From a virus (Duplodnaviria > Caudoviricetes), in IMG/VR virus record IMGVR_UViG_3300012878_000051, positions 1 through 26,632 of that record: a stretch of 26,632 nucleotides of DNA; one strand, 5' to 3'. This document shows positions 1 to 22,271 of the stretch, piece after piece. The notes beneath the pieces are model-generated. The model made no database searches. It was not told the origin of the DNA and saw nothing but the letters and a program-made list of their open reading frames with translations. A program made the position numbers and the translations under genes. How positions within the stretch are numbered: the stretch's first letter is position 1; every line of letters begins with the position of its first letter.

Positions 1-1458
1 TCACAGATACGGCGTGGCCAGCCAGATGATCTTGTTGCGCAGCCGCTTGGCAAACGGCGCCTGCGTCAGGTCTTCCAACGCCACGCGTTTGGCTTGGCCG
101 ATCAGCCCGTCAACCCGGTCGCCGATCCAGCGGGCAACCGTGGGGTCGTAGATCTCGGTGTCCAGCTCGAAATTCAGCCGCAGGCTGCGCGGGTCGAGGT
201 TGGACGAGCCCACATACGCCCAGGCGTCATCCACCGTCATCAGCTTGGAATGGTCGAACGCGCCATGCGCGCGCCACACCCGGCAACCCGTGCGCACCAC
301 CTGGTCCAGCTGCGCCGACATGGCGTAGTCCACCAGCCGCAGGTTGTTCTTGCCCGGGATGACGATGTCCACATGGATGCCGCGCCGCGCGGCGGTCGCC
401 AGGGCCCCGATCAGCGTCTGGTCGGGCAGGAAGTAGGGCGACTGGATGCGCACATGGCGTTGCGCCACCGCCAGCGCGCCCAGCAGCATATTGTGCGAAC
501 TGCCCAGCGCCCGGTCGGGGCCGGACGGCACACAACGCATCGGCACGTTGCCTGAGGGCGGCAAGGCGTGCGGGTCGAACCAGGGCTTGGCGGGCAGGGA
601 TTCGTGCGTCGTGAAGTTCCAGTCGTGCGCAAACACCGACATCAGCTGCGTCACGATCGGCCCTTCCACGCGGAAGTGCGTGTCGCGGTTGGTGGCGTCG
701 CCCGCCAGTGCGCTGACAAAGGCCGCGCGCACGTTCATTCCGCCGGTGAAGCCCACGCGTCCGTCGATCACCAGTACCTTGCGATGGCTGCGCAGATTCG
801 CGTAGGGCATGCGAAGCACGCCCAGTGGGTTCGTCATGAAGCGCGCCACCGGCACCCCGCCGCGCGCCAGCATGCGCACGATGGGCGGACGCGAATACTT
901 GGAGCCGATGGCGTCGATCAGCACCCGCACCTCGACGCCGCGCTCGCGGGCTTCGATCAGCGCCTGCGCCAGCTCGCGCCCGATCGCGTCGTTGTCGAAG
1001 ATATAGCTTTGCATCGCCACGGCGTGACGCGCGTCGCGGATGGCCTGCAGCATGGCCGGGTAAGTTTCGTCGCCACCGGCAAGCGGCCGCACCGCGTTGC
1101 CGCCCAACAGCCGGAAACGGCTGACGCGGTCGCCCAGCACTTTCAGGGACGCAAACTGCGGCCCCGAAATGGGCGCCACGTCCACGGGCAAGGTCTCGAC
1201 CTGCTCGGCATCCACCACCATCGCTTCGTCGCGCTGCTGCGACAGCCGCGTCTTGCGGATCCGGTTGATGCCCGCCACGAAATAGAACAGGGCGCCGAAC
1301 AACGGCGAGAACAACGCCACCCCGACCCAGCCGATGGCCGCCCGCACGTCCTGCTTGGTCATCGCGGCATGCACCGCCGCGCCCGTGCCCGCCACGATGC
1401 TGATGGCAAAAACCAGATGGGGCCAGTAATCGATCAAAATTGCGTGTATGCGATCCAT
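1..1458 (-). CDS. cls: Cardiolipin synthase (phospholipase D family)
   Basis: N-terminal hydrophobic helices and two HKD motifs (HRKVLVID, HSKLMTVD) with the GSSNLDPRS tail. ATG at 1458 chosen; the ORF track extends to a TTG at 1485. Confidence 0.93.
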   Translation of the reverse strand: MDRIHAILIDYWPHLVFAISIVAGTGAAVHAAMTKQDVRAAIGWVGVALFSPLFGALFYFVAGINRIRKTRLSQQRDEAMVVDAEQVETLPVDVAPISGPQFASLKVLGDRVSRFRLLGGNAVRPLAGGDETYPAMLQAIRDARHAVAMQSYIFDNDAIGRELAQALIEARERGVEVRVLIDAIGSKYSRPPIVRMLARGGVPVARFMTNPLGVLRMPYANLRSHRKVLVIDGRVGFTGGMNVRAAFVSALAGDATNRDTHFRVEGPIVTQLMSVFAHDWNFTTHESLPAKPWFDPHALPPSGNVPMRCVPSGPDRALGSSHNMLLGALAVAQRHVRIQSPYFLPDQTLIGALATAARRGIHVDIVIPGKNNLRLVDYAMSAQLDQVVRTGCRVWRAHGAFDHSKLMTVDDAWAYVGSSNLDPRSLRLNFELDTEIYDPTVARWIGDRVDGLIGQAKRVALEDLTQAPFAKRLRNKIIWLATPYL

Positions 1459-1550
1459 AGCGACGGCGTAAAAGACGGCCTCCAAGTGGGAACCATGCGG
1501 AAGGATAGCAAGCTGTGACAGTCAGGCAAGTGAAATTAGGGGCAGGGCGT

Positions 1551-1676: not shown

Positions 1677-1753
1677 GGTGGCTGTAGCTCAGTTGGTAGA
1701 GTCCTGGATTGTGATTCCAGTTGTCGTGGGTTCGAGCCCCATCAGCCACCCCA
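1677..1753 (+). tRNA. tRNA-His (GTG)
   Basis: Acceptor stem GTGGCTG/CAGCCAC, G-1 at 1677, anticodon GTG at 1711-1713, GTTCGAG T-loop, C discriminator and encoded CCA at 1751-1753. Confidence 0.97.
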
Positions 1754-1771
1754 AAGAATTCCTTAGAAATC

Positions 1772-1793
1772 AGCCGCCTAGAGCGGCTTTTTT
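1772..1793 (+). terminator. Intrinsic terminator after tRNA-His
   Basis: AGCCGC-CTAGA-GCGGCT hairpin followed by a T run. Confidence 0.85.
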
Positions 1794-1909
1794 CTTTTGT
1801 GCGATCCGAATAATTCTAATAAATCGTACCAGGAACAATGAAGGCTGCGCTTCAACTCATTACGGCAGATGTGACCGCAACATGGGCTCAAGGTCGCTAC
1901 CCAGAGGAC

Positions 1910-2007
1910 CTAGTCCGAACTTCGGACTGCCGCTAGTCCGAATCCTGGACACATCGCTAGTCCAAAGTTCGGACACACAAAACACAACCTTCCAAAAGAC
2001 AATCAAA
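1910..2007. repeat. Three dyad-symmetric iteron-like repeats plus A-rich tract; putative lambda-type replication origin
   Basis: AGTCCGAACTTCGGACT (1912-1928, perfect dyad), AGTCCGAATCCTGGACA (1935-1951) and AGTCCAAAGTTCGGACA (1959-1975), spaced 23 and 24 bp, each preceded by CT. An almost G-free A/C-rich tract follows (1975-2007). Confidence 0.75.
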
Positions 2008-2078
2008 GGGCGCGGATTGTTGTGCATTCACGTGCACAAGAAAAGACCGCATTTCCCCAACATACATTGAAAATCTGC

Positions 2079-2107
2079 TTGACCGTTGCGATTCACACCT
2101 GCAGAAT
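2079..2107 (+). promoter_or_regulatory. Putative late (PR'-like) promoter of the tail/lysis operon
   Basis: TTGACC (2079-2084), 17 bp, CAGAAT (2102-2107); followed within ~40 bp by a strong terminator. Confidence 0.6.
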
Positions 2108-2143
2108 AGGGCCTGTGTTGATAAGTTCTATCAATGCGTCTAG

Positions 2144-2177
2144 AAAAAGCCCGCCAGCGAAAGCAGCGGGCTTTTTT
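2144..2177 (+). terminator. Intrinsic terminator (tR'-like, possibly bidirectional)
   Basis: AAAAAGCCCGC...GCGGGCTTTTTT inverted repeat. Confidence 0.85.
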
Positions 2178-2666
2178 GCGTTCCTACCGATCACATCGGC
2201 GCATTGCACGACCCCCTGGGCTCGTCACTAGACCTTGTCCATCCCGCCTCGCGTCGCCATTGGCAACACGGCTCTCTGATCGGGGACGCAAAGGCACAAA
2301 CGCAATATGAACTCATACCGGAAGACAGGCCACTGAATGGCCTGCCGTCTGGAGACGGCTGCGCGCAGCATTCGCAGCTGTCTTTCCTTGGCGGACAGTT
2401 CTATGGAGGAATGTCTTGAAACTCTCGCAACGATCAAACGCGGGCGATACGAACAGCGGCAAGGATGCGCCAGCGCAAACCTACACCATCCCCGCTGCGC
2501 CGGTCGAAATCGACGGCTTCGGAAATTTGTCACTCGACCGAGCTCTACGGGCGCGGTCCTACCTGGAATCGATCACCCAGCAAGCGGAATAGGCGTTTCC
2601 AAGGAGTGGGCATGCGCCCATGAAAAGTGATCGGTATCGCAATCTGACTTACCTGGAACCATTCAC

Positions 2667-3092
2667 ATGAAAAATCTTGCCCTGCGTTATGTGCAGGACC
2701 TGTGCGCCGAGTTCAACGCAACGCCGGGTTTCACCGCCGTGGTGGAGTCCTCTCCCGCACGGGCCGTCGCGCTTGACGCGCCACAGGTCCTTCTGGTGCA
2801 ACTTGGCGCGGAATCGATCGAAGGTGCGGCGCCGCCCAGGGTGACCCGGCAGCGGGAAATCCAGCTCATTGTCCATACCCGCGGCGACGACCATCTGGCG
2901 CTTGCCGAGCAGGTATTCGAACAAGCGCATCCCGTCGTCATGGCCTACGCCGATCCGAGCATCGTGATGGTCGCCGAGTTCGGGACTGACGATGCCAAGT
3001 ACGCCAATGGCGATCTGCGCCGCCAGGTGGTGACGAAGCGGTATCGCATTACGTATCAGACGGATGAACACACGCTGGGCCGTCCGGCCTAA
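2667..3092 (+). CDS. Putative tail terminator/completion protein (gpU-like), 141 aa
   Basis: Size and position directly before the tube gene; C-terminal YRITYQT beta-strand pattern typical of tail terminators. Confidence 0.65.
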   Translation: MKNLALRYVQDLCAEFNATPGFTAVVESSPARAVALDAPQVLLVQLGAESIEGAAPPRVTRQREIQLIVHTRGDDHLALAEQVFEQAHPVVMAYADPSIVMVAEFGTDDAKYANGDLRRQVVTKRYRITYQTDEHTLGRPA

Positions 3093-3143
3093 GAGAAATT
3101 TCCCATGACGTCGAAAGGCGCATAGGGAGTATCGGGAACACCT

Positions 3144-3170
3144 GCGGGCCGAGAGGCTCGCTTTTTTTTT
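3144..3170 (+). terminator. Intrinsic terminator inside late operon
   Basis: GCGGGCC-GAGA-GGCTCGC hairpin (GNRA loop) followed by T9. Confidence 0.85.
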
Positions 3171-3257
3171 ACCGCGCCAAGTTGCGCACACGCTGTTAAG
3201 TCAGCATCAACTGCAACTCAATAGGTCCCGCAAGGGCCTGACCCTAGAGGAAAACAA

Positions 3258-4193
3258 ATGGCTAAATCGACCCGGAAAACGCTTCTGCTGGCGAAAATTC
3301 AAACGGCGCCTGGCGCGGATCCGATTCCGACCGGCGCCGCCGATGCGATGCTGGTCCGTAACCTGACGCCGACGCCCCTGTCGGCGGAATTCGTCGATCG
3401 GGAACTGCTGCGCCCGTACATGGGAAACGCTGGCCAGATCGCTACGACGCAATACTCCCAACTTGAATTCGAAGTGGAGCTCGCTGGTGCGGGAGAGGCG
3501 GGCAAGTCGCCCGCATGGGGCGCATGCCTGCGTGCGTGCGGCTTCTCGGAAACGGTCGCCGAAGGCATTGATGTCCGATACGCGCCGGTCTCCCAGAACT
3601 TCGAGCAGATCGGCTTGCACTATTACCTGGATGGCCTGTTCCACAAGATTCTGGACGCTCGCGGCACCGTTTCCATCGACATGACGGCCAAGGGCATTCC
3701 CGTACTGAAGTTCCGCTTCATCGGCGCCTATCAGCCGATCAAGGATTCGGCGATGCCGGCCGACGTGAATTTCGACGCGTTCATGATCCCCAAGGCCGTC
3801 AATAAACAGAACGTGCCCAGCTGGTCGTTGGGCGCGTACACGGGTTGCCTGCAGACGCTGTCGATCGATATGGCGAACGAACTGGTCTGGCGCGCGCTGA
3901 TCAACTGCGAAGGCGCCGAAATCACCAACCGCAAGCCGACCGGCAAGATCTCCCTGGAGCTGCCGCCGATCGCGCAGCTGAACTGGCCGGCGATGGTGTT
4001 GTCCGGCCAGGGCGCGCCTCTGACGATTACCCACGGCACCGAGGCGGGCAACGTCGTCCAGCTCAACGTCAAGGACGCTCAACTGACGAACCCGGCCTAC
4101 TCGGACCTGGACGGCGTCGCCATGCTGGACCTGGACATGAACGTGAACCCCGGCCAAACCGGCAACGACGAGTTGGAAATCGTGGTGCGTTGA
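3258..4193 (+). CDS. Major tail tube protein, 311 aa
   Basis: Strong RBS (GAGGA), strongly biased codons, position before the chaperone and tape measure genes, siphovirus tube-like sequence. Confidence 0.8.
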   Translation: MAKSTRKTLLLAKIQTAPGADPIPTGAADAMLVRNLTPTPLSAEFVDRELLRPYMGNAGQIATTQYSQLEFEVELAGAGEAGKSPAWGACLRACGFSETVAEGIDVRYAPVSQNFEQIGLHYYLDGLFHKILDARGTVSIDMTAKGIPVLKFRFIGAYQPIKDSAMPADVNFDAFMIPKAVNKQNVPSWSLGAYTGCLQTLSIDMANELVWRALINCEGAEITNRKPTGKISLELPPIAQLNWPAMVLSGQGAPLTITHGTEAGNVVQLNVKDAQLTNPAYSDLDGVAMLDLDMNVNPGQTGNDELEIVVR

Positions 4194-4230
4194 GCGTCAG
4201 CTTGCGGCAACCGTTCAATCTTTACCTGTG

Positions 4231-4260
4231 GCGCCCGGAATTTTCCGGGCGTTTTGCTTT
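4231..4260 (+). terminator. Probable intrinsic terminator after tube gene
   Basis: CGCCCGGAA/TTCCGGGCG inverted repeat followed by TTTTGCTTT. Confidence 0.7.
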
Positions 4261-4275
4261 CTGGAGATCCCAATA

Positions 4276-4689
4276 ATGGCTTTCATCGCAGCCAAGCGCC
4301 CCGTTGCGGCAACCAAAATCGACCTGACCGCCAATGACCAACATGGCAATGCCATCAATATTGAGTTTGTGGCCCAGTACCGCCGGCACATGCCCGACGA
4401 CCTAGCCGACCTGAAGGATGGTATGGCGAATTCGGTGCGCGTCCAACAAGGGCTGGAACTGGTCGAGCGACCCGATGGTTCGCCGGTTCCGCCGTATGCA
4501 TACACGAGCGATATGGCGTTCATCAAGGACAAGCTTGTCGGCTGGCTGGGCGTGAAGGACGGCGGCGGCGACGCCATCCCTTATTCGGAGCAGGCGCTGG
4601 AGAATGTGTTGTCCGATTGGCCGGAGTTGATCGGGCCGTTGTTCAAAGGGTTCTTCAGTGCCCATGAGGGCGCCCGGCAAAAAAACTGA
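4276..4689 (+). CDS. Tail assembly chaperone (gpG-like), 137 aa
   Basis: GGAG RBS before ATG 4276; lies between tube and tape measure genes; ends in CAA AAA AAC TGA slippery sequence. Confidence 0.8.
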   Translation: MAFIAAKRPVAATKIDLTANDQHGNAINIEFVAQYRRHMPDDLADLKDGMANSVRVQQGLELVERPDGSPVPPYAYTSDMAFIKDKLVGWLGVKDGGGDAIPYSEQALENVLSDWPELIGPLFKGFFSAHEGARQKN

Positions 4690-5075
4690 TTGAGGCGGCG
4701 TGCTACTGGGCTGGCGGCGCGCAGGCTTCGAAAGACGATTTCGACCTCGACGAGCAAGTGGTCGAGGCCCTGCGCGCGGCGGGAGCGCCGCCAGAGATTA
4801 CTGCGTCAGCGTCAAAGCCGGGCGATACGGATGGCGATCATTTCGAAGTGTGGCCGGAGAACTGGGATGCACTCTCGGTTTTTCTGGCCTTGGGCAATGT
4901 GTGGTCATGGGTAACGCCCGGTATGGGGGAGCCTGTACGCGTCGGGATTCCCGCGACAGAGATCAAAGCGACTTTTTGGTTCACAGGAATCAAGAAGCGC
5001 GAGCGGCAGCGGATTTTTCAAGACATACGAGCCATGGAGCGGGCCGCGCTCGATGTGTTTTCGGCGAGAGCCTAA
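4686..5075 (+). CDS. Tail assembly chaperone gpT-like segment (DUF1799-like), reached by -1 frameshift
   Basis: The -1 frame is open from the A7 run (LIEAACYWAGG...) to 5075 and contains the EVWPENWDAL...F and IRAMERAAL motifs. Confidence 0.75.
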   Translation: MIEAACYWAGGAQASKDDFDLDEQVVEALRAAGAPPEITASASKPGDTDGDHFEVWPENWDALSVFLALGNVWSWVTPGMGEPVRVGIPATEIKATFWFTGIKKRERQRIFQDIRAMERAALDVFSARA

Positions 5076-5096
5076 GCGACGAGAGTGGAGTAAGGA

Positions 5097-7664
5097 ATGG
5101 CTGACAAGAACCTGGGGGTTCAATCAACGGGCGATGCGTCCGAACGGGTGCGCGCCTACGGCATGGGCGGAGCCGCCGCCGCCAAATATGCGGCGGTATC
5201 GGCGGGGGCAATGGAGGTGGCGGGGGCGGCCGCGGGCAAGGCGGAGGCCGCGAGCCTGGCAGCCGCCAGCGCCAGCCAGGCGTTGGGCCAAGCGGCTGTA
5301 GAAGGCGCGGCAAGCATGCTGGCGGCCAATCGCGTGGCTGTTGAGCGCGCTGGCGCCCTCATGGGGCTGGCCGCGGCGGCCAGGGATGCCGCCGCGGCGG
5401 AGCGTGAACTTTCGGCCGCGGCTGGCGCGTCTCGGAGTCCTCCACCGCAGGATCGGGGCGCGGGTCAGACCCGCGCGGTTCAACCTGCGGGTCCGAGCAC
5501 CGATCTGTTGCAGCGTGCGAGCCAGGTCAAGGATACGCTTGACCTGACGATCCCGGCGGCAAGGACGGTGGGCGCCATTTTTGGGAGTTGGGCATTGCCG
5601 CTGTCCGGGGCGGCGGCAGGCGTTGGGGCGCTTAGCGCCGCCTACATGGGCGGGGCGGAAGAATCGCGGGAGTATGCGCGCACGCTGATCAAGACGGGCG
5701 ATGCGGCGGGCTTGAGCGCCGAGCAGATGCAGGACATGGCGCGCCGCATCAGTAGCGTGGCGGGAACGCAAAGCCAGGCTGCGCAGGCCATCAACCTGCT
5801 TGCGCTGAACACCGCGGTCAGCTCGGACGGCATGGAGCGTGCGGCCCGGACCGCGGTGGTCTGGAACCAAGCGACCGGAACGGCGATCGCCGAGACGGTA
5901 GGAGCCTTCGGAGAAATCGCGAATGCGCCGCTGGCGGCCACGGTGAAACTCAACGAAGGCATGAACTTCCTGACCGCCAGCACCTACGAACAGATCCGGT
6001 CGTTGGTGGAACAGGGCAGGGTTGCGCAAGCTGCCGACATTGCACAGCAGGCGTATGCCGACGCGCTGATGGACCGCGCGCCAAAGCTGGAGCAGCAGTT
6101 GGGGGGCCTTGAACGCGCATGGAAAAGCATCAAGTCCACGGCTATGGGGGCTTGGGACGCCATGGCCAATTTGGGGCGCGACCAGACTCTGGAAGAGAAG
6201 ATCCACACTCACGCGGCGGTCGTTCAGAACCTGGAAAACAAGTACCAAGCTTCTCTGACGCGGAACCGAGCGTCTGGAAATCTTTCCGCCAAGCTTGCCA
6301 TGGCTCAAGATCTGCAAGCCGACCTTGAGAAACAGTACTACGCAACGCTTGCGGTGAAGTCCGAAGGCGCGGCCCGTAAGCAAGAGACGGATCAAGTCAC
6401 CGCGCGCAACACTTACCTGTCGGCGAATAGCCGGATGACGGATGGCCAACAACGCATCAACGCAATCCAAGCGGAGAATGCTGAATTCCGTAAGGCGGTA
6501 GGGGACCTGGAAGAGGGAACGAAAGAGTACCAGGAGGTATATGCGGCGCATGAAACAGCACTCGCCCGCATCAACGCGAGATTCGATAGTCAAAGGAATG
6601 CCCCGAAGGGAACGCCGCGGCTACCTCCTCTACCGTCGCGCTCGACCCCCGCCCCTGTCGAGGGATCTTCTGGCACGTCTAATACCAAGCTCGAACCGCC
6701 CAGCGCTTTGGACGAGGCGAACTTGGCCATGTCTGACTTTGCGAAAGCCCGCGGTTCGCAAGCTGAGTCGCAGCTGATCGGCATCGGACTGACCGCGAAT
6801 CAGCGCGTGGCACAAACCTCCCGTGCTCAGGTAGTGGATCGCTTTCAGCAGATCCGCAGCAGCTTTACAGCACGGACCATGCGCGAAGGGGGAGGGCTTG
6901 AAGCCCTGAATTCGACGGCCTACGCCGAGGGGATGGCTGCGATCGGCCGGGGGGGCGAACAGCAACTTGCCGACGAGGATGCACAGACCCAAAGGCGAAT
7001 TGGCATGCAACAGGACTGGACGGTGGGCGCCAAGCAGGCCTACGGCGAGTGGGCGGAAAGCACCGGCAACCTCATGGAGCAAACCAAGGGCGTGGTGTCC
7101 TCAGCTTTTACGGGCATGACCAATATGGTCACGCAGTTTGTGATGACCGGCAAAGCCAGCTTTAGCGATTTTGCTCGGAGCATTCTTGCTGATATGGCGC
7201 AGATCGCGGTCAAACAGGCCGTTCTGCGGGTAGTGACATCCGCCGTGGGGTTGTTCGCCAACGCCAAAGGCGGAGTCTATTCGTCCCGCAGCTTGTCCGC
7301 CTATTCCAACGGCGTCTATGACAGCCCGCAGTTCTTCGAATTCGCAAAGGGGGCAGGGGTTTTCGGCGAAGCCGGGGCCGAAGCCATCATGCCTTTGAAA
7401 CGTGGTCCCGACGGCAGTCTGGGCGTCAGGGCCGACGTTCCCCAATGGGCGCCGCAACCGACGACTACGGCGGGCGCGTCCGAAGTCAACGTCATTACGT
7501 CCATTCAGGTCATGGGCGACGGCAATGTGAACGAGACGAAGGACACCGGCAACAACGATTCCGCCCGGATGCTGGGCGACATGATCTCTAGCCAGACCAA
7601 GGCAATCATCGCCCGGGAGCTGCGTCCGGGCGGGCTGATCTACAACTTCGGAAATAGGGGGTAG
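5097..7664 (+). CDS. Tail tape measure protein (lambda gpH-like), 855 aa
   Basis: Long Ala-rich helical protein with lambda-type central region and C-terminal motifs (SFSDFARSILADMA, FANAKGGVY, GEAGAEAIMPL). Confidence 0.92.
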   Translation: MADKNLGVQSTGDASERVRAYGMGGAAAAKYAAVSAGAMEVAGAAAGKAEAASLAAASASQALGQAAVEGAASMLAANRVAVERAGALMGLAAAARDAAAAERELSAAAGASRSPPPQDRGAGQTRAVQPAGPSTDLLQRASQVKDTLDLTIPAARTVGAIFGSWALPLSGAAAGVGALSAAYMGGAEESREYARTLIKTGDAAGLSAEQMQDMARRISSVAGTQSQAAQAINLLALNTAVSSDGMERAARTAVVWNQATGTAIAETVGAFGEIANAPLAATVKLNEGMNFLTASTYEQIRSLVEQGRVAQAADIAQQAYADALMDRAPKLEQQLGGLERAWKSIKSTAMGAWDAMANLGRDQTLEEKIHTHAAVVQNLENKYQASLTRNRASGNLSAKLAMAQDLQADLEKQYYATLAVKSEGAARKQETDQVTARNTYLSANSRMTDGQQRINAIQAENAEFRKAVGDLEEGTKEYQEVYAAHETALARINARFDSQRNAPKGTPRLPPLPSRSTPAPVEGSSGTSNTKLEPPSALDEANLAMSDFAKARGSQAESQLIGIGLTANQRVAQTSRAQVVDRFQQIRSSFTARTMREGGGLEALNSTAYAEGMAAIGRGGEQQLADEDAQTQRRIGMQQDWTVGAKQAYGEWAESTGNLMEQTKGVVSSAFTGMTNMVTQFVMTGKASFSDFARSILADMAQIAVKQAVLRVVTSAVGLFANAKGGVYSSRSLSAYSNGVYDSPQFFEFAKGAGVFGEAGAEAIMPLKRGPDGSLGVRADVPQWAPQPTTTAGASEVNVITSIQVMGDGNVNETKDTGNNDSARMLGDMISSQTKAIIARELRPGGLIYNFGNRG

Positions 7665-7666
7665 CA

Positions 7667-7996
7667 ATGGAAACGTTCAATTGGAGCTACCGGAAGAATC
7701 CGCGTGGGCAGATCACGCACCGGACGCTGAAAGCGCAATTCGGCGATGGCTATGCGCAAGAGGCCGAAGACGGCATCAATTCGCGCGTGGAGTCATGGCC
7801 GCTTGAATTCTTCGGCCGTGAAGACGAGGTTCGACCCATCAAGGAGTTCCTGGACAGGCACAAGGGCTGGAAGCGGTTCTATTGGACGCCGCCGCTGAGC
7901 CCGCGTGGAACGTTCAAGACAACAGGCGAGTACCAGGTCGTGCCGCTAGGGGGCGGATGGTTCACGCTGTCCGTCGTGTTCGAGAGTCGGCCGTAA
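7667..7996 (+). CDS. Minor/distal tail protein (lambda gpM-like), 109 aa
   Basis: METFNW..., AQFGDGYAQ, GIN, FLDRHKG...FYWTPP motifs; directly after the tape measure gene. Confidence 0.92.
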   Translation: METFNWSYRKNPRGQITHRTLKAQFGDGYAQEAEDGINSRVESWPLEFFGREDEVRPIKEFLDRHKGWKRFYWTPPLSPRGTFKTTGEYQVVPLGGGWFTLSVVFESRP

Positions 7997-8017
7997 CGGA
8001 AAGAAGGGACTTGGAGT

Positions 8018-8638
8018 ATGGGAATTATCACTGACATCAGCCGAGTGGTGCCAAGCGCGGCAGGAGACGTCGACGGTGTGGTGCTGTTTACTGGCGGACA
8101 GATCATTCAGAACCTGACGGTGTCGTCCGCGCTGCAAGACGTTGCCTTCAGCGTTGGCCTGAAACGTGGCACCGTCGTCTATTCATTGGTCAAGAAGCAG
8201 ACGTTACGGGGTAACTCTTCCCTGCGCTTGCGGCTTCCACCCTTTCGATTGGACGCCAACGACCAGTTGCTGGCGTTCAGCGACGGTCCAGCGATCTGGA
8301 CGGCATTGGGCGCGGAACTGAAGATCGCGCGAAGCACCACCCTGCGCATTTACGCGAGCCAAGGTGCGAATTACACAGCCATCATCGGCCCGGGCACGGG
8401 TTCGCCGCCCATCAGAGTGGCGGGGATTGTGGGCTGCGTGCAGGGGAGCAGCGATGCGATCGCGACGTTGGCCGTGTGGGACGGGGGAATCGTTCGGGAG
8501 ATCATCCCGCCGACCGTCGTCCCGGGGTACGGATCCGTGCGCGCCGTCAATCTTCCAACTGTTTCACCCGGATTCTCGATTCGCGCGCGTTCCGATGCGC
8601 GAATGGTCTGGTTTTCCTACGGGGAGATTATTTCTTGA
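8018..8638 (+). CDS. Module 1 gene A: uncharacterised beta-rich protein, 206 aa (paralog of 10390..11037)
   Basis: GGAG RBS; shares the LRLPP.R, GIV.C, YGS.R and W.SYG motifs with the second copy. Confidence 0.7.
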   Translation: MGIITDISRVVPSAAGDVDGVVLFTGGQIIQNLTVSSALQDVAFSVGLKRGTVVYSLVKKQTLRGNSSLRLRLPPFRLDANDQLLAFSDGPAIWTALGAELKIARSTTLRIYASQGANYTAIIGPGTGSPPIRVAGIVGCVQGSSDAIATLAVWDGGIVREIIPPTVVPGYGSVRAVNLPTVSPGFSIRARSDARMVWFSYGEIIS

Positions 8639-9951
8639 ACAACACTACCTCGTTCGGGTTCGTGACTGGCCTTCGCGCGGCCGAAGCAGCGGTCATCGAC
8701 CTTGATTTCAGATCCGGCGACCTTCCTTCTTCCGTCGTCGCCCCCACTCGCCCTGGCAACAGCGCCACATATTGCGATAGAGAGCGTATGCACATCGCTG
8801 AGCCGGATACCGCGCGTGTCGGCTTTTGCCACGACACGGGCATGTGGGGGCTGGTGCGCGATTACGCCAGCACGAACCGGGTGGCGTATAGCCAGTATTC
8901 TCCAAGCACTTGGGGGGCAAGCACCGCTGGCGCTGAAATCTCCGTGGCAGGCGCCGCCCCGTTCCTGCTGGACTCCGAATCCTTCGCGCTATGCCGGGCT
9001 GGCAGTGGGTACGTGTTCCCGGGAAGAGGGACGGTGTCGACCATCTATCCCGTCGACGGCTACAGTGTGGCCTCCATCTTCATACGGCCACTTTCGGCTG
9101 CCGCCCGGCCAAGATTGCTATTGCACAACGTGGCGTTCGGCGCGAATCAAACCGTGACCTATAACCCGGTATCGGACGCGGTGGAGGCAGACGCGACGAA
9201 CGCGGCCGATACCTACATCGGGATGCAGAAGTACCCCAATGGCGTGAGACGAATTTTCGTCGCGGCGAAGGCGGTGGCCTCGACGGCAACGTATCCGCCC
9301 CTAATGTGGCCAACAGGAGCCAATGGAGGCGACTTCCTTTTTGGCGGGATGCAATTGGAGTGGTTGGGCTACCCGACCAGTTATATCCCCACGACTGGAA
9401 CGGTCGTCACCCGCCTGGCCGACCGAGGGCTGGCCGCAGTCATCGACCCGGCCATACTGCACGCGACGCAGGGAACGCTGATTGCGGATGTATTCCATGG
9501 CCCATCGTTGGCTGCCGACGCGAACGGATTTGCGGGGTTGGAAAGCGACGACACCGGCACCACGAACACGGAGAACTACTCGCTGCTGGCCTGCAGTCCC
9601 GGGACTACAGCCGGCTTGGCCGACAGGCGGATCCGTGCCTACATCCGGAGCGCGGCGACGCCTCAACAGGCGCCGTTGGCTCCGGGGGCCGCTCCTAGCG
9701 GTGCCCGCGTCATCCTCGGATCGTCATGGGATTCTACGACGGGCGCGATGGTGTTGGCGGCGAACTATGACGGTTCTGTCAGCTACAGCAGTGCCGTTGC
9801 CCCCAAGCTGGACGTGACCAAGTTCAATCGCATGCAGCTAGGCGCGATGTATTCCAGCGCCAATCGAAATATGACGGGATTCATTCATCGTGTGCGGTAC
9901 TTCCCGAGGGCGATGGCGGTGGCCGAACTGCGTCAGGAGGTGGGACTGTGA
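8635..9951 (+). CDS. Module 1 gene B: putative fibre/receptor-binding protein, ~438 aa (paralog of 11034..12359)
   Basis: TTG start overlapping the upstream stop (TTGA) after GGGGAG. Motifs TYCD, R.GF.HD...WGL.RD, KYP.G.RR, FGG.QLE...TSYIP are typical of phage fibre/spike lectin-like domains. Ends in EVGL. Confidence 0.65.
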   Translation: MNNTTSFGFVTGLRAAEAAVIDLDFRSGDLPSSVVAPTRPGNSATYCDRERMHIAEPDTARVGFCHDTGMWGLVRDYASTNRVAYSQYSPSTWGASTAGAEISVAGAAPFLLDSESFALCRAGSGYVFPGRGTVSTIYPVDGYSVASIFIRPLSAAARPRLLLHNVAFGANQTVTYNPVSDAVEADATNAADTYIGMQKYPNGVRRIFVAAKAVASTATYPPLMWPTGANGGDFLFGGMQLEWLGYPTSYIPTTGTVVTRLADRGLAAVIDPAILHATQGTLIADVFHGPSLAADANGFAGLESDDTGTTNTENYSLLACSPGTTAGLADRRIRAYIRSAATPQQAPLAPGAAPSGARVILGSSWDSTTGAMVLAANYDGSVSYSSAVAPKLDVTKFNRMQLGAMYSSANRNMTGFIHRVRYFPRAMAVAELRQEVGL

Positions 9952-10265
9952 ACCAGGTAAAAACTCCTCTACACCTGCACGCGGCATCCCGTAGGGAAAT
10001 TGAAGACGCCTTGGTCCGAGTGGGGGTGCTGATCCAGGACCCTGGTGGTTACGTGGAGGCAAAGGCGCCGTTTGATTATGTTTTCCTGGGGCCGCAGCCC
10101 TACGAAACAGGCGACACCGAGCCTTCTGACAGCGGCGAAGATGCACCCGTTCTGGGTTGGTATCCGGGGGTATGGGCTGTGGTGTTCGGGCCGATGTCCG
10201 AAGCGCAGCTGGCGTTGTTGCCACTGCCTCCTGCCCAGCCCTTTCCGCCCATGGTCGCGTTGTGA
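9948..10265 (+). CDS. Module 1 gene C: small acidic protein, putative fibre chaperone, 105 aa
   Basis: GTGA overlap with gene B and GGAGG RBS; position after a fibre-like gene. Confidence 0.6.
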   Translation: MNQVKTPLHLHAASRREIEDALVRVGVLIQDPGGYVEAKAPFDYVFLGPQPYETGDTEPSDSGEDAPVLGWYPGVWAVVFGPMSEAQLALLPLPPAQPFPPMVAL

Positions 10266-10289
10266 CCCCGAACTGCCGATTTAACCCAC

Positions 10290-10314
10290 GCCCGCACGAT
10301 GCGGGTTTTTTTTT
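10290..10314 (+). terminator. Intrinsic terminator between the two modules
   Basis: GCCCGCA-CGA-TGCGGGT hairpin followed by a T run. Confidence 0.8.
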
Positions 10315-10389
10315 GGATTTGAGAGATGACCCCAGCCTTGATGCAGGTCTTTGTATTCAATCCGCCTGAAATTGCACTAGGGGACGAAC

Positions 10390-11037
10390 GTGATTATTGA
10401 TGAAACGATTACTGGATTCAGCACAGCCGGCGTTGACTTCACTCTGGCGCCGCCGTCATATCTCCCAGCCAGCATTCTGGCGAGCGCTGCCGCTGCCGAT
10501 ACTGTCATCGAAATAGGCATCTGCACGTCGGCGGACCCGGCCACGTATCGCCGGATCTTGTCGCCGCGCATATTGCAGACAGGGCAGGCCGCGCGCGTTC
10601 GATTGCCGCCCATGCGCATGAATGCCGGTGTCGGTGCGCAGTTGGTGGCGAAGTCGGACAAGACTGTGAACTGGCTGGTCGCCAGTCAACGTTTTGGTGC
10701 GTCCAGCCGTGTCACTTCGCTTCGCACCGTCAATGTTCGCCCGAACGTTCGGACGGCGATTTACGCGCCGAACGCGGGGCAAAGACGTTGGCGAGTGCCG
10801 GGAATTGTCTGCTGCAATCCCACGGCCGCGTCTTCTCTGGTGACGCTGAGCATCAGCCGAGTAGAAGGGACGAGCACCGTCTATCGCGACATTGCGGGTC
10901 CCGAACTCGTTCCGCCGTATGGATCGCTGCGGCTCGCCATTCCCCAAGTGGTAGATGCCGACAACGGACCACTCTCCCTTTATGCGACCAGCGAAACCGC
11001 CAGCATCTGGCATTCCTACGGAATATTTCTCCCATGA
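10390..11037 (+). CDS. Module 2 gene A: uncharacterised beta-rich protein, 215 aa
   Basis: GTG start after AGGGGA; paralogous motifs with 8018..8638. Confidence 0.7.
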   Translation: MIIDETITGFSTAGVDFTLAPPSYLPASILASAAAADTVIEIGICTSADPATYRRILSPRILQTGQAARVRLPPMRMNAGVGAQLVAKSDKTVNWLVASQRFGASSRVTSLRTVNVRPNVRTAIYAPNAGQRRWRVPGIVCCNPTAASSLVTLSISRVEGTSTVYRDIAGPELVPPYGSLRLAIPQVVDADNGPLSLYATSETASIWHSYGIFLP

Positions 11038-12359
11038 CGTCTGCAACTTTCGGGTCCATTTCAGAACTTGCACCCGCCATTTTTCCCGATTTCTCCGTGG
11101 ACTTCTCGGATGGAAACGGCCCGGCCAACTTGATTGGACCGGATAAGGGAATCACCGGCCAGCGCACCTATTGCGATCAGGGACGCATGTACATCGCCGC
11201 CGATGGACAGCCCAGAATCGGCTTTGACCATGACCGGATGCGCTGGGGGTTGCGACGCGACGTCGGGTCCGAAAACCTGGTTTCGCGCTCTCAGTTCGAG
11301 ATCAACCAGTGGTCGTTCACGGCGGTTGCAACGGAGCGCTGTTCGCACAATGTCGCCGATTTCCTGCTGCCCAGCGAGCGGTGTTCCATGATGGACTACC
11401 GCGGCGAGGCTAATAGCTACGTGCGCGCCACGATTGCTGCGTCGATCAATTACGTGGAGGGAAGCTGGTACACCGCGTCGGTCTTTTTCAAGAATCTGGA
11501 TCAGGCCGGGGTCGATGTTCGCTTAAGGCAAGCCGCCGAACCGTTTGGAGGCTACCAGGACGCCACCTATCTTGCCGCGAGCGACTCGGTGGCGATGAGC
11601 TCGGGGAGCAGCGCGAATTCTATCGTGGGTCTGGAAAAATACCCTGACGGATGGCGACGCTTGACCATCACGTCGCTGTGCACTGCGGGCGGCAACCTTC
11701 GCGGCCCGTTGCTGTGGCCCGGCGGTACGCGACAAGGGCGGTTTCTCTTTGGCGGGTTCCAACTGGAGAAGCTGGGATTTTCGACGTCCTACATTCCGAA
11801 ATCCACGGCCACGGCGATAAGAGGGAACGAGCGAGGCGTCTTCGCAGTGCTGCCTGGAGGAGTGTTGGTTGGCGCTAACTCGGGAACGATCTGGACTGAC
11901 CACTGCATACAGACGCGCCTTCAAGGCAGCGCGGTAGGCATTGCGGGGTTCGACCGGGTGCCTGCTAGTGCACCCTACATGTCCGTAGCAGCGACATTCA
12001 GCATCGCCATGCCTGCTCAGCAGGTTGCCCGGCTCTATTTCATTGGCCGGGACGGCGTATCGGGCAATCCCGGGGCGCCCCAGAACTTCTCAGACGACCG
12101 CCGGGACACCTTCTGCGCCAGTTGGGACAACGAGGCAAAGTCGTTGGAGCTTTGCCATCTGTATGGCCACACCAGAACGGATCCAGTCGGGATACATCCG
12201 ACCTTTCCAGGCATGGATCCTGCCATGTCCGCAGACCGCATGTGCCTGGGATCCATGCACAGTGCGACAGGATTCATCGCGACCGGCTGGATCTACGGCG
12301 TTCGCCTGTATCGCCGGAAGTTGACCCGAGACCAGATGATGGAGGAAGTCGGACTATGA
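11034..12359 (+). CDS. Module 2 gene B: putative fibre/receptor-binding protein, 441 aa
   Basis: ATGA overlap; same motif series as 8635..9951 (TYCD, PRIGFDHD..WGLRRD, EKYPDGWRR, FGGFQLE...TSYIP); ends in EVGL. Confidence 0.65.
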   Translation: MTSATFGSISELAPAIFPDFSVDFSDGNGPANLIGPDKGITGQRTYCDQGRMYIAADGQPRIGFDHDRMRWGLRRDVGSENLVSRSQFEINQWSFTAVATERCSHNVADFLLPSERCSMMDYRGEANSYVRATIAASINYVEGSWYTASVFFKNLDQAGVDVRLRQAAEPFGGYQDATYLAASDSVAMSSGSSANSIVGLEKYPDGWRRLTITSLCTAGGNLRGPLLWPGGTRQGRFLFGGFQLEKLGFSTSYIPKSTATAIRGNERGVFAVLPGGVLVGANSGTIWTDHCIQTRLQGSAVGIAGFDRVPASAPYMSVAATFSIAMPAQQVARLYFIGRDGVSGNPGAPQNFSDDRRDTFCASWDNEAKSLELCHLYGHTRTDPVGIHPTFPGMDPAMSADRMCLGSMHSATGFIATGWIYGVRLYRRKLTRDQMMEEVGL

Positions 12360-12700
12360 GCACCATTCATAACCCTCGCGACGGCGTGCTGCTGGTGCGT
12401 TGCGCCAGTGACGAAGCGTTACTCCAGGCGGGCCGCCGCAATGGCCTCGTGACAAACCGCCCCATCGATAGCGCCGCCGAGTGGTCGGATGGCGTGCTGG
12501 TCTTGTCGGGACGCCCCGGCCTTCGTAGCACGGGGCGCTACCGCGATGCGGGCGAAGAGGGCAGGGAGGAAATCATGGAAACGTCCCCTCATCTGTACGC
12601 CATGATCGTCGGGGCTGACCTGCAGGATCTCCGTTATCAGGATTTCGACATCGTCCACGAGGCCGAAGGCTGGGACGTTCCGGGATGGGGTGACGCATGA
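12356..12700 (+). CDS. Module 2 gene C: small acidic protein, putative fibre chaperone, 114 aa
   Basis: ATGA overlaps on both sides and GGAGG RBS; positional and weak sequence counterpart of 9948..10265. Confidence 0.6.
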   Translation: MSTIHNPRDGVLLVRCASDEALLQAGRRNGLVTNRPIDSAAEWSDGVLVLSGRPGLRSTGRYRDAGEEGREEIMETSPHLYAMIVGADLQDLRYQDFDIVHEAEGWDVPGWGDA

Positions 12701-13443
12701 AAATCTACGGAGACGTACAGCGCCTGGACTTGGGCGAACTGGTGGATCTTTTCGAAATTGACCTTACCCCGTTTGGAGGTGAACACCTGCGCTTCCATGG
12801 CTACCTGCAATTGCAGGTGATCAAGTGGCAGGGAAACGAGTATGGCCCCTGGCCGCTGCAGATCGAAGGTATTGAAACGAAGGGCGACGGACCATCCCCG
12901 ACGCCTACGCTCTCGGTCGGCAATATCGGATCGGACAAGGACGGGAACCCGCTGCCCGGTGTGATCTCTGCCCTTTGCATGCAGTACCGGGATCTGAAGG
13001 GCGCACGGGTCACGATGCGCCGCACGCTCGGGAAGTACCTGGATGCAGACAATTTCCCGGAAGGAAATCCAGAGGCCGATCCGGCCCAGGAGTTGCCGCC
13101 GCAATCGTGGGAGATCGAGCTCAAGCAATCGGAAAATTCGCAAAGCGTGAGTTTTGAACTTGCCACGGTCATGAACGCGGACGGCGTGCGATTACCCGGC
13201 CTGATCGTCCAGACCAGCGTCTGCCAGTGGACGCGAATCGGCGGCTATCGCGGTTCGTACTGCGCATATGCCGGACAGGCGATGTTCGACCGCGACAACC
13301 AACCGACCACGGACCCCGCCGCCGACCGTTGCCCCGGTTTGCTCTCATCGTGCCGACTTCGGCTGGAGGCGACCAACGGCGGGTTTGCGGGCGGCAACAT
13401 GAATTTCCTGGCCTTTCCGGCCGCGGATCGATTGAGGGGATGA
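12697..13443 (+). CDS. Minor tail protein L (lambda gpL-like), 248 aa
   Basis: LFEID, PTLSVGN, YLDADNF..GNP.ADP and C-terminal four-Cys Fe-S motif (CQW...C.Y...C....SC). Confidence 0.93.
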   Translation: MKIYGDVQRLDLGELVDLFEIDLTPFGGEHLRFHGYLQLQVIKWQGNEYGPWPLQIEGIETKGDGPSPTPTLSVGNIGSDKDGNPLPGVISALCMQYRDLKGARVTMRRTLGKYLDADNFPEGNPEADPAQELPPQSWEIELKQSENSQSVSFELATVMNADGVRLPGLIVQTSVCQWTRIGGYRGSYCAYAGQAMFDRDNQPTTDPAADRCPGLLSSCRLRLEATNGGFAGGNMNFLAFPAADRLRG

Positions 13444-13445
13444 CG

Positions 13446-14240
13446 ATGAAAAGAACAACGGTTGCCGCCATTCAGCGCCACGCCATGGACCGCTATCCGC
13501 AGGAGTGCTGCGGGGTGGTGATCCGTCGCGCAGACACCCTGGCCGAGACATATCTGCCTGCGGAGAACGAACTGGGCCCGGAAGAGGCGTTGAAGGCTTT
13601 CGAGATCGGCGGTGCGTTCATGGCAAGCGCCGAAGACCAGGGAACGCTGATGGCCATCATCCACTCCCATCCCGATGGCCCAGACGAAGCGAGCGAAGCA
13701 GACCAGGCCGCGTGCAATGTCAGCGGGCTGACCTGGTACATCCAGCCTCTCCATCGTGGCGACGATGGGGAGTTGCGTTGCACCAACCTGATCGGCATCG
13801 CCCCGGCATCGCAAGATGCGCCCCTGGTGGGCCGCCAGTTCGCCCATGGAGTCCTGGATTGCTACGAACTGATCCGGGATTGGTTCAGGCGGACGCGCGG
13901 CGTAGAACTTGCCCAGCACGAACGCGAAAACGAATGGTGGCGAAAGACGCCTGAAAAAGATCTGTACATCAGCAACCTGGCTGGCGACGGCTGGCGGGTG
14001 CTGGGCGACGGGGAGCCGCTGAAGGCCGGCGACATGATCGTCATGCAGGTGGCTTCCGTCGTGCCCAATCACGCAGCGGTCTACCTGGGCGACGAACCCT
14101 TGCCCGACTACCAGGAGCCTTACATGCGCCGTGATCGGATCTTGCACCACTTGTACGGGCGCCCCTCGGCCGTCGATGTCTATGGCGGCATGTGGAAGCA
14201 CTGCACGCGCGTGATCGCGCGGCACCAGAGTCAGGAGTAA
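13446..14240 (+). CDS. Tail assembly protein K (JAB + NlpC/P60), ~264 aa
   Basis: YPQECCG, HSHP....S..D JAB motif; DCYELIRD, NHAAVY, ILHH NlpC/P60 motifs. Start at 13446 or 13440. Confidence 0.92.
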   Translation: MKRTTVAAIQRHAMDRYPQECCGVVIRRADTLAETYLPAENELGPEEALKAFEIGGAFMASAEDQGTLMAIIHSHPDGPDEASEADQAACNVSGLTWYIQPLHRGDDGELRCTNLIGIAPASQDAPLVGRQFAHGVLDCYELIRDWFRRTRGVELAQHERENEWWRKTPEKDLYISNLAGDGWRVLGDGEPLKAGDMIVMQVASVVPNHAAVYLGDEPLPDYQEPYMRRDRILHHLYGRPSAVDVYGGMWKHCTRVIARHQSQE

Positions 14241-14243
14241 GAC

Positions 14244-14879
14244 GTGGAAAACATGAATGAGACCGAAGTCCGTACGATCTTGCTGTACGGCCCGCTGCGC
14301 GCCCGGTTCGGCCGCGAATTCCGTCTGGCTGTCAGCAATATGCGCGAGGCCATTCATGCGCTAAGCGCGCTGGTTCCCGGGTTCCGCCAATTCATGGTGC
14401 AGGCGGCGGCAAGCAAGCAGGAGTTCGCGTGCCTGCATGGTCAACGCCGTATCGGCGAGGAGCGCCTTGGGGAGTGGCTGGATAGCGAAGAACCCATCCG
14501 GATCGCCATGGTGGTCAAAGGGAACAAGCGAGGCGGATTGTTTCAGATCGTGCTGGGTGCTGTGCTTATTGTGGCCGCGACGATAGCGAGTGGGGGCGCT
14601 GTTGCCGCGGCCTTCGCCTCTAAAGGATTGATTGGCGCGGCTGCCTGGATGGGCGCATCGATGATGCTCGGCGGAGTGCTTCAGGCTATTTCCCCGCAGC
14701 CCCAAGGATTATCCGCCAGCGATAGCCCGGAGAACGGCGCCTCCTACGCGTTCAACGGCCCCGTGAACATGATCGCGCAGGGCAACCCGATTCCGATCGC
14801 GTACAGCGATCCCGACGGTTTTGTGTGGATGGGGTCCGCCACCTTGTCGCAGGGCATCTATTCCGAGGATCAAGTCTAA
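14244..14879 (+). CDS. Tail assembly protein I (lambda gpI-like), 211 aa
   Basis: LYGPL...FGR N-terminus, hydrophobic Gly/Ala stretch, SYAFNGPVN...QGNPIP motif. Alternative start ATG 14253. Confidence 0.92.
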   Translation: MENMNETEVRTILLYGPLRARFGREFRLAVSNMREAIHALSALVPGFRQFMVQAAASKQEFACLHGQRRIGEERLGEWLDSEEPIRIAMVVKGNKRGGLFQIVLGAVLIVAATIASGGAVAAAFASKGLIGAAAWMGASMMLGGVLQAISPQPQGLSASDSPENGASYAFNGPVNMIAQGNPIPIAYSDPDGFVWMGSATLSQGIYSEDQV

Positions 14880-21372: not shown

Positions 21373-21562
21373 TTGCTATAGGGCGAGTCGTTCCGTCGAA
21401 TACCCGCCTATTCCCGAGCAATTGGATGCGCTCTTGAAACTTGCGCTTCATCTGAGTGGTCAGCGAGATGACCTGCCGACCGGGGTGCAGGAATGGATCG
21501 CCAAATGCCAAGAGATAAAGCGCAAATATCCCAAACCCGATCCAGACAACCAGCCCGCCTAG
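21353..21562 (+). CDS. Small putative tail-fibre chaperone, 69 aa
   Basis: TTG start after GGAGGT; R..EYPPI.EQLDAL...W...C..IK.KYPKP pattern common in small genes following phage fibres. Confidence 0.6.
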   Translation: MKIKHRNCYRASRSVEYPPIPEQLDALLKLALHLSGQRDDLPTGVQEWIAKCQEIKRKYPKPDPDNQPA

Positions 21563-21575
21563 CGCGGGCTTTTTT
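21552..21575 (+). terminator. Intrinsic terminator before lysis cassette
   Basis: AGCCCGC-CTAGC-GCGGGCT hairpin followed by a T run. Confidence 0.8.
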
Positions 21576-21597
21576 ACGCCCAAATAGGAGGGCGATC

Positions 21598-21966: not shown

Positions 21967-22271
21967 CCGTGGGGTTCATCGTATTCATCTTGAACGGCAC
22001 GGCATGCGCGATCACGTGCCTCAGTATTCTGATGTACCGACGTGAGGGAGCCCGTTTTCGCCTGGGCGCCAGCGCTGTGGCCTATGCGCTTGTGCTGGCC
22101 ACCGGCGCGGTAACAATCCGCACGCTGTACGGGACCTACGGCGGTCCCGTTGACCCGTCCGAATTGCTCATCAATGGGGTGCTTTGCGTATCGATGTTGG
22201 CGAGCCGGGGGAACGTGACGGTGCTGATATCTCCACGAAGGATGTTCGGGAGGGCGAGATTTTGGACCTGA
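21963..22271 (+). CDS. Second putative holin/antiholin (DUF754-like), 102 aa
   Basis: Three hydrophobic segments with YRR.GAR.R and RGNV motifs; ATGA overlap. Confidence 0.75.
   Translation: MTVGFIVFILNGTACAITCLSILMYRREGARFRLGASAVAYALVLATGAVTIRTLYGTYGGPVDPSELLINGVLCVSMLASRGNVTVLISPRRMFGRARFWT

Follow-up and report, generated by a model that had tools for sequence, protein, structure and literature searches.

Organization of the locus

We examined a 26,632-nucleotide stretch of viral DNA (Duplodnaviria; Caudoviricetes), which spans positions 1 to 26,632 of the IMG/VR record IMGVR_UViG_3300012878_000051 and is hereafter called the window. From left to right, it holds a host gene and a tRNA-His, a short non-coding region with dyad repeats and an A-rich tract (the cassette), a tail operon, lysis genes, a CI-like repressor, an O-like initiator, a helicase loader, and a gene named X (Table 1). 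The O-like gene starts at 24308, 22.3 kb from the cassette. An earlier reading of this DNA, made from the letters alone (the sequence-only reading), had described three dyad repeats followed by an A-rich, nearly G-free tract in non-coding DNA, between the tRNA terminator and a putative late promoter, and had interpreted them as a lambda-type replication origin standing outside its initiator gene, at the head of the tail operon. This description was accurate: the three repeats were found at a spacing of 23 then 24 bp, with cores of the form GTCC-N7-GGAC and far above the shuffled expectation, the tract followed them at 1975-2007, the terminator hairpin (1772-1788) and a promoter-like site (2079-2107) lay on either side, and the setting at the head of the tail operon, far from the initiator gene, was correct.

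The repeats (family D1) read CTAGTCCGAACTTCGGAC at 1910, CTAGTCCGAATCCTGGAC at 1933, and CTAGTCCAAAGTTCGGAC at 1957, and the cores of the three corresponding iterons are GTCCGAA, GTCCGAA, and GTCCAAA. When up to three mismatches were allowed, the dyad pattern was matched twice in the window, against 0.05 matches expected, and two or more matches occurred in none of 100 shuffled sequences. The three iterons were the only perfect GTCC-N7-GGAC sites across all 26,632 bases; with at most one mismatch in the eight specified bases, 19 sites were counted in the window, the three iterons included. Moreover, comparison by eye with the unit of origins located within O genes (a conserved spacer plus iteron, AGGTCG(C/A)TAGTCC...GGAC) suggested the presence of a damaged fourth iteron with its spacer at 1889-1909, about 5 bp short of a full unit. 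The tRNA-side edge of the cassette was therefore placed at about 1886, and not at 1910.

The A-rich tract, which is predicted to be a DNA unwinding element, was the only one of about 26,600 segments of 33 nt in which the share of A or the share of T reached 58%, and its AT content (67%) was in the top 0.3% of the window. The motif common to the family, GGACACACAAAA-N3-AACCTTCCAAAAG, spans the end of iteron 3 (from 1971) and the A-rich tract. The specified bases were all intact, with 8 out of 8 in each of the three iterons and 25 out of 25 in the A-rich motif. A small palindrome was observed just to the right of the tract, and a palindrome at the same offset was present in many origins located within O genes. 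One reading frame through the cassette translates as ...SPKFGHTKHNLPKDNQR... and, as had been stated in the sequence-only reading, is closed upstream by an in-frame TAG (1911-1913). The cassette lies outside any open reading frame (ORF), no O-like ORF was found around it, and a search of 1500-2800 against Rfam gave no RNA family above threshold besides the tRNA.

Homology of the cassette to origins located within O genes

When 1750-4200 was compared with 50,697 phage records by blastn, a sole match was returned, located in the O gene of Burkholderia phage KL4 (a single phage with two accessions). This match covered 1910-2007 of the window (74.5% identity, E = 3e-6), was located within the annotated replication protein O gene, and had a similar layout, with AGTCCC..GGGAC repeats followed by ACACACAAAAGAAAACCTTCCAAAAG. 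The 28-nt A-rich motif was found in 54 viral contigs; in 50 of these, it was located in the middle of an ORF of 265-566 amino acids (aa), at residues 145-347. According to blastp, the ORF spanning the motif was a homolog of the O protein of the window in 51 of the 54 contigs. In one exception (L027, which is locus L157 in the set collected by N-terminal domain described below), the O N-terminal domain lay just upstream of the motif; in another contig (L047), the locus was cut by the contig end. The only orphan copies of the motif outside an O gene were those of L048 and L052, which are 97-98% identical to the window. The usual arrangement invoked by the sequence-only reading, i.e., dyad iterons plus an A-rich element in the middle of gene O, fits both KL4 and the 50 motif-carrying contigs.

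The positions of the repeats were also compared. In the arrays of the family, the last three iterons are located at -15, -39, and about -62 from the array end, and the three iterons of the cassette match these positions exactly. The comparison with O-like proteins, which had been proposed as a check on the sequence-only reading, gave matches as well: by tblastn against the O ORFs of viral contigs, up to 23 out of 32 aa (72%) were identical, and this similarity was confined to 1914-2009. The same search found no trace of the O N-terminal or C-terminal domain in the flanks of the cassette. Nothing convincing was found, by eye, blastn, or tblastn, that could correspond to residual O or X coding sequence in 2010-2078. 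Since similarity is confined to 1914-2009 and the flanks hold no domain traces, this region qualifies as an origin cassette rather than as a recognizable pseudogene. Overall, it is well supported by these comparisons that the cassette (1886-2009, about 120 bases) is an origin that derives from an O gene and is now located outside it.

Loss of the origin from the resident O gene

The N-terminal Phage_rep_O domain and the C-terminal domain of the O protein encoded in the window are both intact, and the protein is 63% identical, over its full length, to its nearest relative, the origin-carrying O of L046/L071. When the two genes were aligned at the DNA level, a 64-nt gap and a GC-rich replacement were observed at the position of the origin; the linker of the resident O gene (about 24722-24800) is rich in GC and falls short of that of the nearest relative by about 64 nt. 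Neither a perfect iteron nor an A-rich tract was found inside the resident O gene, and a single degenerate iteron, GTCCGGATTGCGGGC at 24726, is left in its linker. The origin-coded peptide, SP..GHTK.NLPK, was nearly invariant in all 13 other aligned O proteins and absent from that of the window.

To avoid the bias of motif-based picking, 80 O genes were collected by their N-terminal domain alone, 79 of which had 300 nt or more of downstream DNA. All of these 79 genes, except the two window-type loci, contained an internal A-rich tract or origin motif (L144 was counted as having the motif, after an insertion). The loss of the origin was common to all three window-type O alleles, which are independent. 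In the O gene of L144 (1780-2400), an insertion of about 110 aa separates the N-terminal domain from the origin, in which the iterons belong to another type, GTACAGAATCTGTAC, and are followed by the same A-rich motif. In the O gene of L062, the unit of the A-rich tract, AACCTTCCAAAAGAC, is present in three tandem copies.

Selection on the genes of the element was estimated, as the ratio of nonsynonymous to synonymous rates (dN/dS), from a single pairwise comparison between the window and its relative G001, both head-less. The O genes differed by 26 synonymous and 15 nonsynonymous changes (dN/dS of 0.18), indicating purifying selection. Eight of the amino-acid differences were located before residue 45, according to a hand count on the alignment. 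O was 95.3% identical between the two and more diverged than the neighbor genes, and may have been exchanged.

The iterons of the cassette were then compared with the class of the resident O. Among the 17 O genes whose N-domain was at least 72% identical to that of the window, 14 carried at least two GTCCGAA iterons, compared with 3 out of 61 below 72% identity; relatedness inflates these counts, which are to be taken as support and not as proof. The same co-variation of iteron class with the N-domain was seen in the set of O genes selected by motif, and the six closest loci (86% N-domain identity) also carried the origins most similar to the cassette. An O gene of 344 aa with four GTCCGAA-type iterons was identified in the genome of an Achromobacter species (G019). 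Judging from these alignments, the DNA-binding domain of the resident O belongs to the clade with GTCCGAA-type iterons, the type found in the orphan copy, and the resident O is predicted to recognize and bind the cassette. No second iteron cluster was found in any of the five related GTCCGAA-class records, each of which had a single cluster inside O; an ancestor with two origins, of the kind known from phage SPP1, is therefore unsupported.

Gene content and boundaries of the element

The features of the window are listed in Table 1.

Table 1. Features annotated in the window, from left to right, with the search or property on which each is based.
Feature	Position	Strand	Basis or remark
Host cardiolipin-synthase-like gene (cls; PLD domains)	1..1485	-	Pfam PLDc_2 3e-43
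Host tRNA-His (GTG)	1678..1753	+	ARAGORN; Rfam tRNA 63.7 bits; integration-site end of the element
tRNA terminator	1772..1797	+	Hairpin 1772-1788 plus T run
Damaged fourth iteron and spacer (putative)	1889..1909		AGGTCGCTA + CCCAGAGGAC; about 5 bp under a full unit
Iteron 1	1912..1928		Perfect 17-bp palindrome AGTCCGAACTTCGGACT; -62 from the array end, the position found in the family
Iteron 2	1935..1951		AGTCCGAATCCTGGACA; -39 from the array end
Iteron 3	1959..1975		AGTCCAAAGTTCGGACA; -15 from the array end
A-rich tract, predicted DNA unwinding element	1975..2007	+	Composition; 58% A, one G
Small palindrome	2019..2041		TTGTGCA-N6-TGCACAA
Late-promoter module (putative)	2079..2182	+	Q/pR'/tR'-like architecture
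Siphovirus-type tail operon	2592..20944	+	PHROGs; Pfam Phage_tube_2
Tail terminator gene	2667..3092	+	
Tail tube gene	3258..4193	+	
Tape measure gene	5097..7664	+	
Central fiber J	14825..20944	+	
Lysis genes (two holins, Rz/Rz1-like spanins)	21493..23130	+	PHROGs
CI-like repressor	23172..24224	-	Pfam HTH_3, Peptidase_S24 (self-cleaving); PHROGs
Divergent control region	24235..24298		Two TATAAC-N4-GTTATA-type dyads, unlike the dyads of 1912-1975
O-like initiator without internal origin	24308..25183	+	Pfam PF04492 (Phage_rep_O) 5.9e-18
DnaC/IstB-like helicase loader	24912..25904	+	PHROG 50 1.2e-65; Pfam IstB_IS21
Gene X, last gene of the element	25874..26632	+	252 aa, Cys-rich; no PHROG or Pfam family

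Over 15874-26632, the window and its parent metagenome contig are 100% identical, and the contig then passes straight into host-type genes; in the 10 kb to the right of X, these encode CMD, a GGDEF cyclase, Lnb_N, a C92 peptidase, and an MFS transporter. Neither PHROGs annotation of the window nor the picked ORFs in the 10 kb to its right revealed a head, terminase, or integrase gene, and a repeat of the tRNA 3' end (attR) was likewise not detected close to the right junction. To judge from its gene content, the element is a head-less prophage remnant of about 25 kb, located between tRNA-His and host genes, and not an intact lambdoid phage. Achromobacter is the probable host, since the best homologs of X and a GTCCGAA-class O gene were found in that genus.

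In addition to the genes listed, the tail operon holds chaperones and minor tail proteins, and protein-level homology to relatives of the tail module starts at 2592. None of the five records of such relatives (64% tube identity) had an O-like gene or iterons upstream of the tail genes; they are uninformative on the cassette. Between the minor tail genes, at 8018-12700, several long, mutually overlapping ORFs were present in different frames, two of which matched the same tail PHROG (5939). The J-like fiber gene contains two adjacent 418-bp segments (18330-18747 and 18750-19167) that are about 75% identical, corresponding to an internal tandem domain duplication. No endolysin was recognizable in the lysis cassette (21963-23130), where a 190-aa ORF (22184-22756) gave only a weak SLT match (E = 0.12). 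With 350 aa, the CI-like repressor is longer than usual; its HTH domain spans residues 10-61 and its S24 domain 216-332, and the roughly 140 residues between them have no match. The dyads of the adjacent control region are likely to be repressor operators. The true start of the helicase loader is probably near 25126-25180.

Late promoter module and gene X

The region between the cassette and the tail operon contained a promoter-like site, TTGACC-17-CAGAAT (2079-2107), a palindrome, TTGATA-AGTTC-TATCAA (2118-2134), and a terminator hairpin with perfect 11-nt arms (2144-2176) followed by a T run. Similar sequences were found immediately after homologs of X: 2144-2184 was 100% identical to the stretch following the X homolog in L084, and 2077-2176 was 81% identical to the corresponding region of G048. 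A promoter, a palindrome, and a terminator were present within about 20 bp after the X homolog in all eight Achromobacter prophages or contigs examined, and the more distant X homolog in G048 had the same downstream arrangement (the post-X regions were those of L076, L077, L078, L079, L084, L085, L086, L089, and L206). This homology indicates that 2079-2182 is a late promoter-terminator module, on which X would act. By its position, X is a candidate Q-like late regulator and a candidate for a new family. Homologs of X were found in Achromobacter and other Burkholderiales prophages, after the replication genes, and the palindrome differed between X subtypes.

In the window, the module heads the tail operon, and X is located at the far end of the element, where the promoter downstream of it is interrupted at the host junction, past its -35. 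The gene order is tail, lysis, cI, O, X in the window, compared with cI, replication, X, late promoter, terminase, head in the relatives. Most simply, the order in the window would be a permuted and deleted version of that of the relatives, derived from tandem copies.

Distribution and conservation of the element

The lineage with a split origin comprised four contigs, namely the window, G001, L002, and L109, and the separation of the origin from O appears, from the genomes compared, to be peculiar to it. No match over the whole length of the element was found in 62 genomes of Achromobacter species, only pieces such as O-internal origins, post-X promoter modules, and tail-terminator genes. In G001, the same element is preceded by late genes belonging to a myovirus prophage and by a truncated tRNA-His (3' part) with its terminator, which indicates that tandem occupancy of the tRNA-His site does occur. 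The adjoining part of G001 (1-22372; L073, L074) corresponds to the late half of a myovirus-type prophage, with a Mu-F-like head protein, a sheath, and a baseplate, and ends at a 73-bp partial 3' end of tRNA-His followed by the terminator.

An 885-bp segment between the tRNA end and the cassette was present in G001 (22373-23256, corresponding to 3714-4597 of L003) and absent from the window, between 1800 and 1853. It contains an ORF of 112 aa, followed by a terminator of its own, that matched no family and may be a moron. Both G001 and L002 carry an extra small ORF beside the cassette.

About six tail genes (those named being tube, tape measure, M, L, K, I, and J) exhibited dN/dS values of 0.06-0.19. 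These included 0.06 for the tube (10 synonymous and 2 nonsynonymous changes), 0.16 for the tape measure (29.5 and 14.5, respectively), and 0.08 for J (51 and 14, respectively). The value for cI was 0 (15 synonymous and no nonsynonymous changes). The tail-terminator gene, with no synonymous and three nonsynonymous changes, was uninformative, and the lysis genes and X had too few changes for an estimate.

Is the cassette a working origin?

The cassette could be a working origin, bound and fired in place by the resident O after cleavage of the SOS-sensitive repressor. We regard this as close to an even call, falling slightly on the doubtful side. With the repressor cleaved, the promoter adjacent to cI would become active, so that O, the DnaC-like loader, and X would be made. 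Once assembled on the three iterons, O would open the A-rich tract; the host helicase would be recruited by the loader. As no integrase gene was found, excision presumably does not occur, and replication would run outward in the chromosome from about 1.95 kb, in an onion-skin manner. The copy number of the late promoter, the tail genes, and the lysis genes would rise, and X would switch on the module at 2079-2182. Divergent transcription from the promoter, 70 bp from the A-rich tract, might, more speculatively, aid opening. That an O protein can act on an origin at a distance is known from lambda, whose O acts in trans on ectopic origins (PMC4488673). Four features also speak for such a function: the element holds a single candidate origin, this origin is matched in class to the resident O, the initiator is conserved in the absence of an origin of its own, and the iteron cores and A-rich motif are intact.

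Several observations weigh against a working origin. The cassette has three intact iterons and a damaged one, compared with 4-8 for O-internal origins that are complete within their contigs; lambda has four, and Stx phages six (PMC7466680). The 885-bp indel ends 33 bp to the left of the damaged iteron, the cassette is located between deletion or indel junctions, and, with no coding homology on either side, a deletion scar would look similar. The orthologous copies of the cassette are 97-98% identical, which is too close to show constraint, and the 97 bp comprising the iterons and the A-rich tract contained one difference versus about 2.8 expected at the rate of the surrounding non-coding DNA, which is not significant. 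The palindrome at 2019-2041 has a mismatch in G001 and L002. Finally, because O is more diverged than its neighbors and may have been exchanged, the purifying selection detected on it could date from its time in active phages. The sequence-only reading, according to which the origin was taken from an O gene and kept as a stand-alone element, stands in its first part, given the homology and a resident O without that segment. Its second part, retention as a working element, is weakened by the number of intact iterons, the deletion junctions, and the close identity of the copies. As for conservation of the repeats across related genomes, which it had also put forward as a check, the orthologous copies contain them, but are too similar to reveal constraint.

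The cassette might instead be a fossil, i.e., the last piece of another O gene, left by a tandem or earlier prophage at tRNA-His, trimmed on both sides, and without function; the resident O and the loader would then be kept only because they lie in the transcript leading to X, or would not have decayed yet. This is a genuine, if rather doubtful, possibility. The element is heavily deleted, as seen from the head, terminase, and integrase genes and the attR repeat that were searched for and not found, the promoter downstream of X is truncated at the host junction, and the permuted gene order is most simply obtained from tandem copies followed by deletions. Tandem prophages do occur at this tRNA, as illustrated by the myovirus prophage adjoining the element in G001. 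Moreover, one of the four iterons is damaged, and no constraint was measurable among the three copies. However, both deletion ends must then have fallen within about 10-30 bp of the functional limits of the origin, removing the whole of the far better conserved N-terminal coding sequence beside it, and all of the specified bases of three iterons and of the A-rich motif remained intact. The iteron class matches the clade of the resident O, and the latter, although devoid of an origin, is open and under purifying selection in all three alleles, which would be odd for an initiator with nothing to initiate.

Protection of the lysogen is an improbable function for the cassette. The orphan iterons would act on superinfecting phages of the GTCCGAA class by titrating their O protein or by being fired by it, thereby lowering their replication, and phages of this O class do exist in the same genus (Achromobacter genome G019). 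Ectopic lambda origins are described as blocking lambda growth through competition for O, with O binding alone being sufficient (PMC4488673), and plasmids carrying iterons ITN3-4 together with oop as excluding rep-lambda phages (PMC3349717). However, the effect in lambda is described as obtained with 20-40 plasmid copies per cell (PMC4488673), whereas a single chromosomal copy with three sites is present here, and the retention of the resident O would be unexplained. An oop-like element was not seen either, although no search aimed at one was made.

O might also bind the cassette in a role other than initiation, such as a fork barrier, a switch of replication mode, or O-dependent control of the late promoter, which we consider quite improbable. 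The cassette is located 70-170 bp upstream of the late promoter, and in SPP1, gp38 bound at oriR has been proposed to stall forks (PMC6316719). However, no second origin was found in the element to send forks toward it, and the A-rich tract, which a pure binding site would not need, is kept with the iterons. Three 17-bp dyads at a spacing of 23/24 bp resemble the layout of lambda operators and the repeats lie about 160 bp from the tRNA integration site, but a nature unrelated to replication, as arm sites of an integrase or excisionase in the att region or as operators of a CI-like repressor, is hardly credible in view of the direct homology to O-internal origins (A-rich tract included), the absence of any integrase gene found in the element, and a cI-O control region that has TATAAC-N4-GTTATA dyads and none of the GTCC-N7-GGAC type.

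Comparison with known systems

In its gene content, the element resembles clusters encoding F-type tail bacteriocins. F-type pyocin clusters combine a tail, lysis genes, and a repressor in such a layout, and the element likewise combines a tail operon of the siphovirus type with a lysis cassette and an S24-type repressor; head and packaging genes were not found, and the tail genes are under purifying selection. It differs from these clusters in having retained an origin cassette together with genes for an initiator and a helicase loader, and is known from its genes alone. The picture suggested by these sequences is that of a domesticated tail-and-lysis element similar to an F-type tail bacteriocin cluster, in which replication genes would have been kept. 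The literature search yielded no tail-bacteriocin cluster described as carrying an origin. A further step, which we consider rather unlikely, is that this domesticated, head-less element keeps the initiator, the loader, and the relocated origin as an SOS-induced gene-dosage device that boosts the production of tail particles and lysis proteins.

According to textbook knowledge, lambdoid origins are located in the middle of gene O (PMC7466680). The cassette shares with such origins (lambda, Stx phages, KL4, and the 50-odd contigs) dyad iterons phased at about two helical turns and an A-rich tract on one side; the likeness extends to direct sequence homology and to a Phage_rep_O initiator followed by a helicase-loader gene. 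In contrast to them, the cassette is not part of any ORF and is separated from O by 22.3 kb, beside a tRNA and a late promoter, with three intact iterons instead of 4-8, and the O gene of the window has itself lost the origin.

The nearest precedent is oriR of SPP1, in which initiator-binding repeats and an AT-rich unwinding element are located outside the initiator gene, among late genes. As described for this phage, oriL lies inside the initiator gene 38, whereas oriR is intergenic, among the genes for late virion assembly, bracketed by transcription signals and beside morons (PMC6316719). The cassette is similarly placed between a terminator and a late promoter, with the extra small ORF of G001 and L002 adjoining it. 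However, SPP1 is described as a complete lytic phage with both origins, and here the outside copy stands alone in a grounded remnant; moreover, this copy is demonstrably derived from a gene-internal origin of the O type. As far as tested, neither the proteins nor the repeats are homologous, and SPP1 is an analogy only. The ectopic lambda origins used as decoys are similar in that origin DNA apart from the O gene can bind O in trans (PMC4488673; PMC3349717), but those described were laboratory multicopy plasmids, unlike the natural single chromosomal copy reported here.

In lambdoid phages, the origin and the initiator normally form one physical unit, the iterons being part of gene O, and in this element they are naturally separated. 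Should the cassette fire, it would provide a natural example of a lambdoid initiator acting in trans to drive the in-place amplification of chosen genes, and the element would be, within the literature searched, the first tail-bacteriocin-like cluster to control its own replication. If the element does act as a dosage device, selection would have moved the origin from the initiator gene to the cargo to be amplified. If the cassette is dead, it would be a clean example of an origin carved out of a gene, and the conservation of an initiator that has no origin would then call for an explanation. In both cases, the resident O and the cassette constitute a testable pair, consisting of one protein and one 120-bp site.

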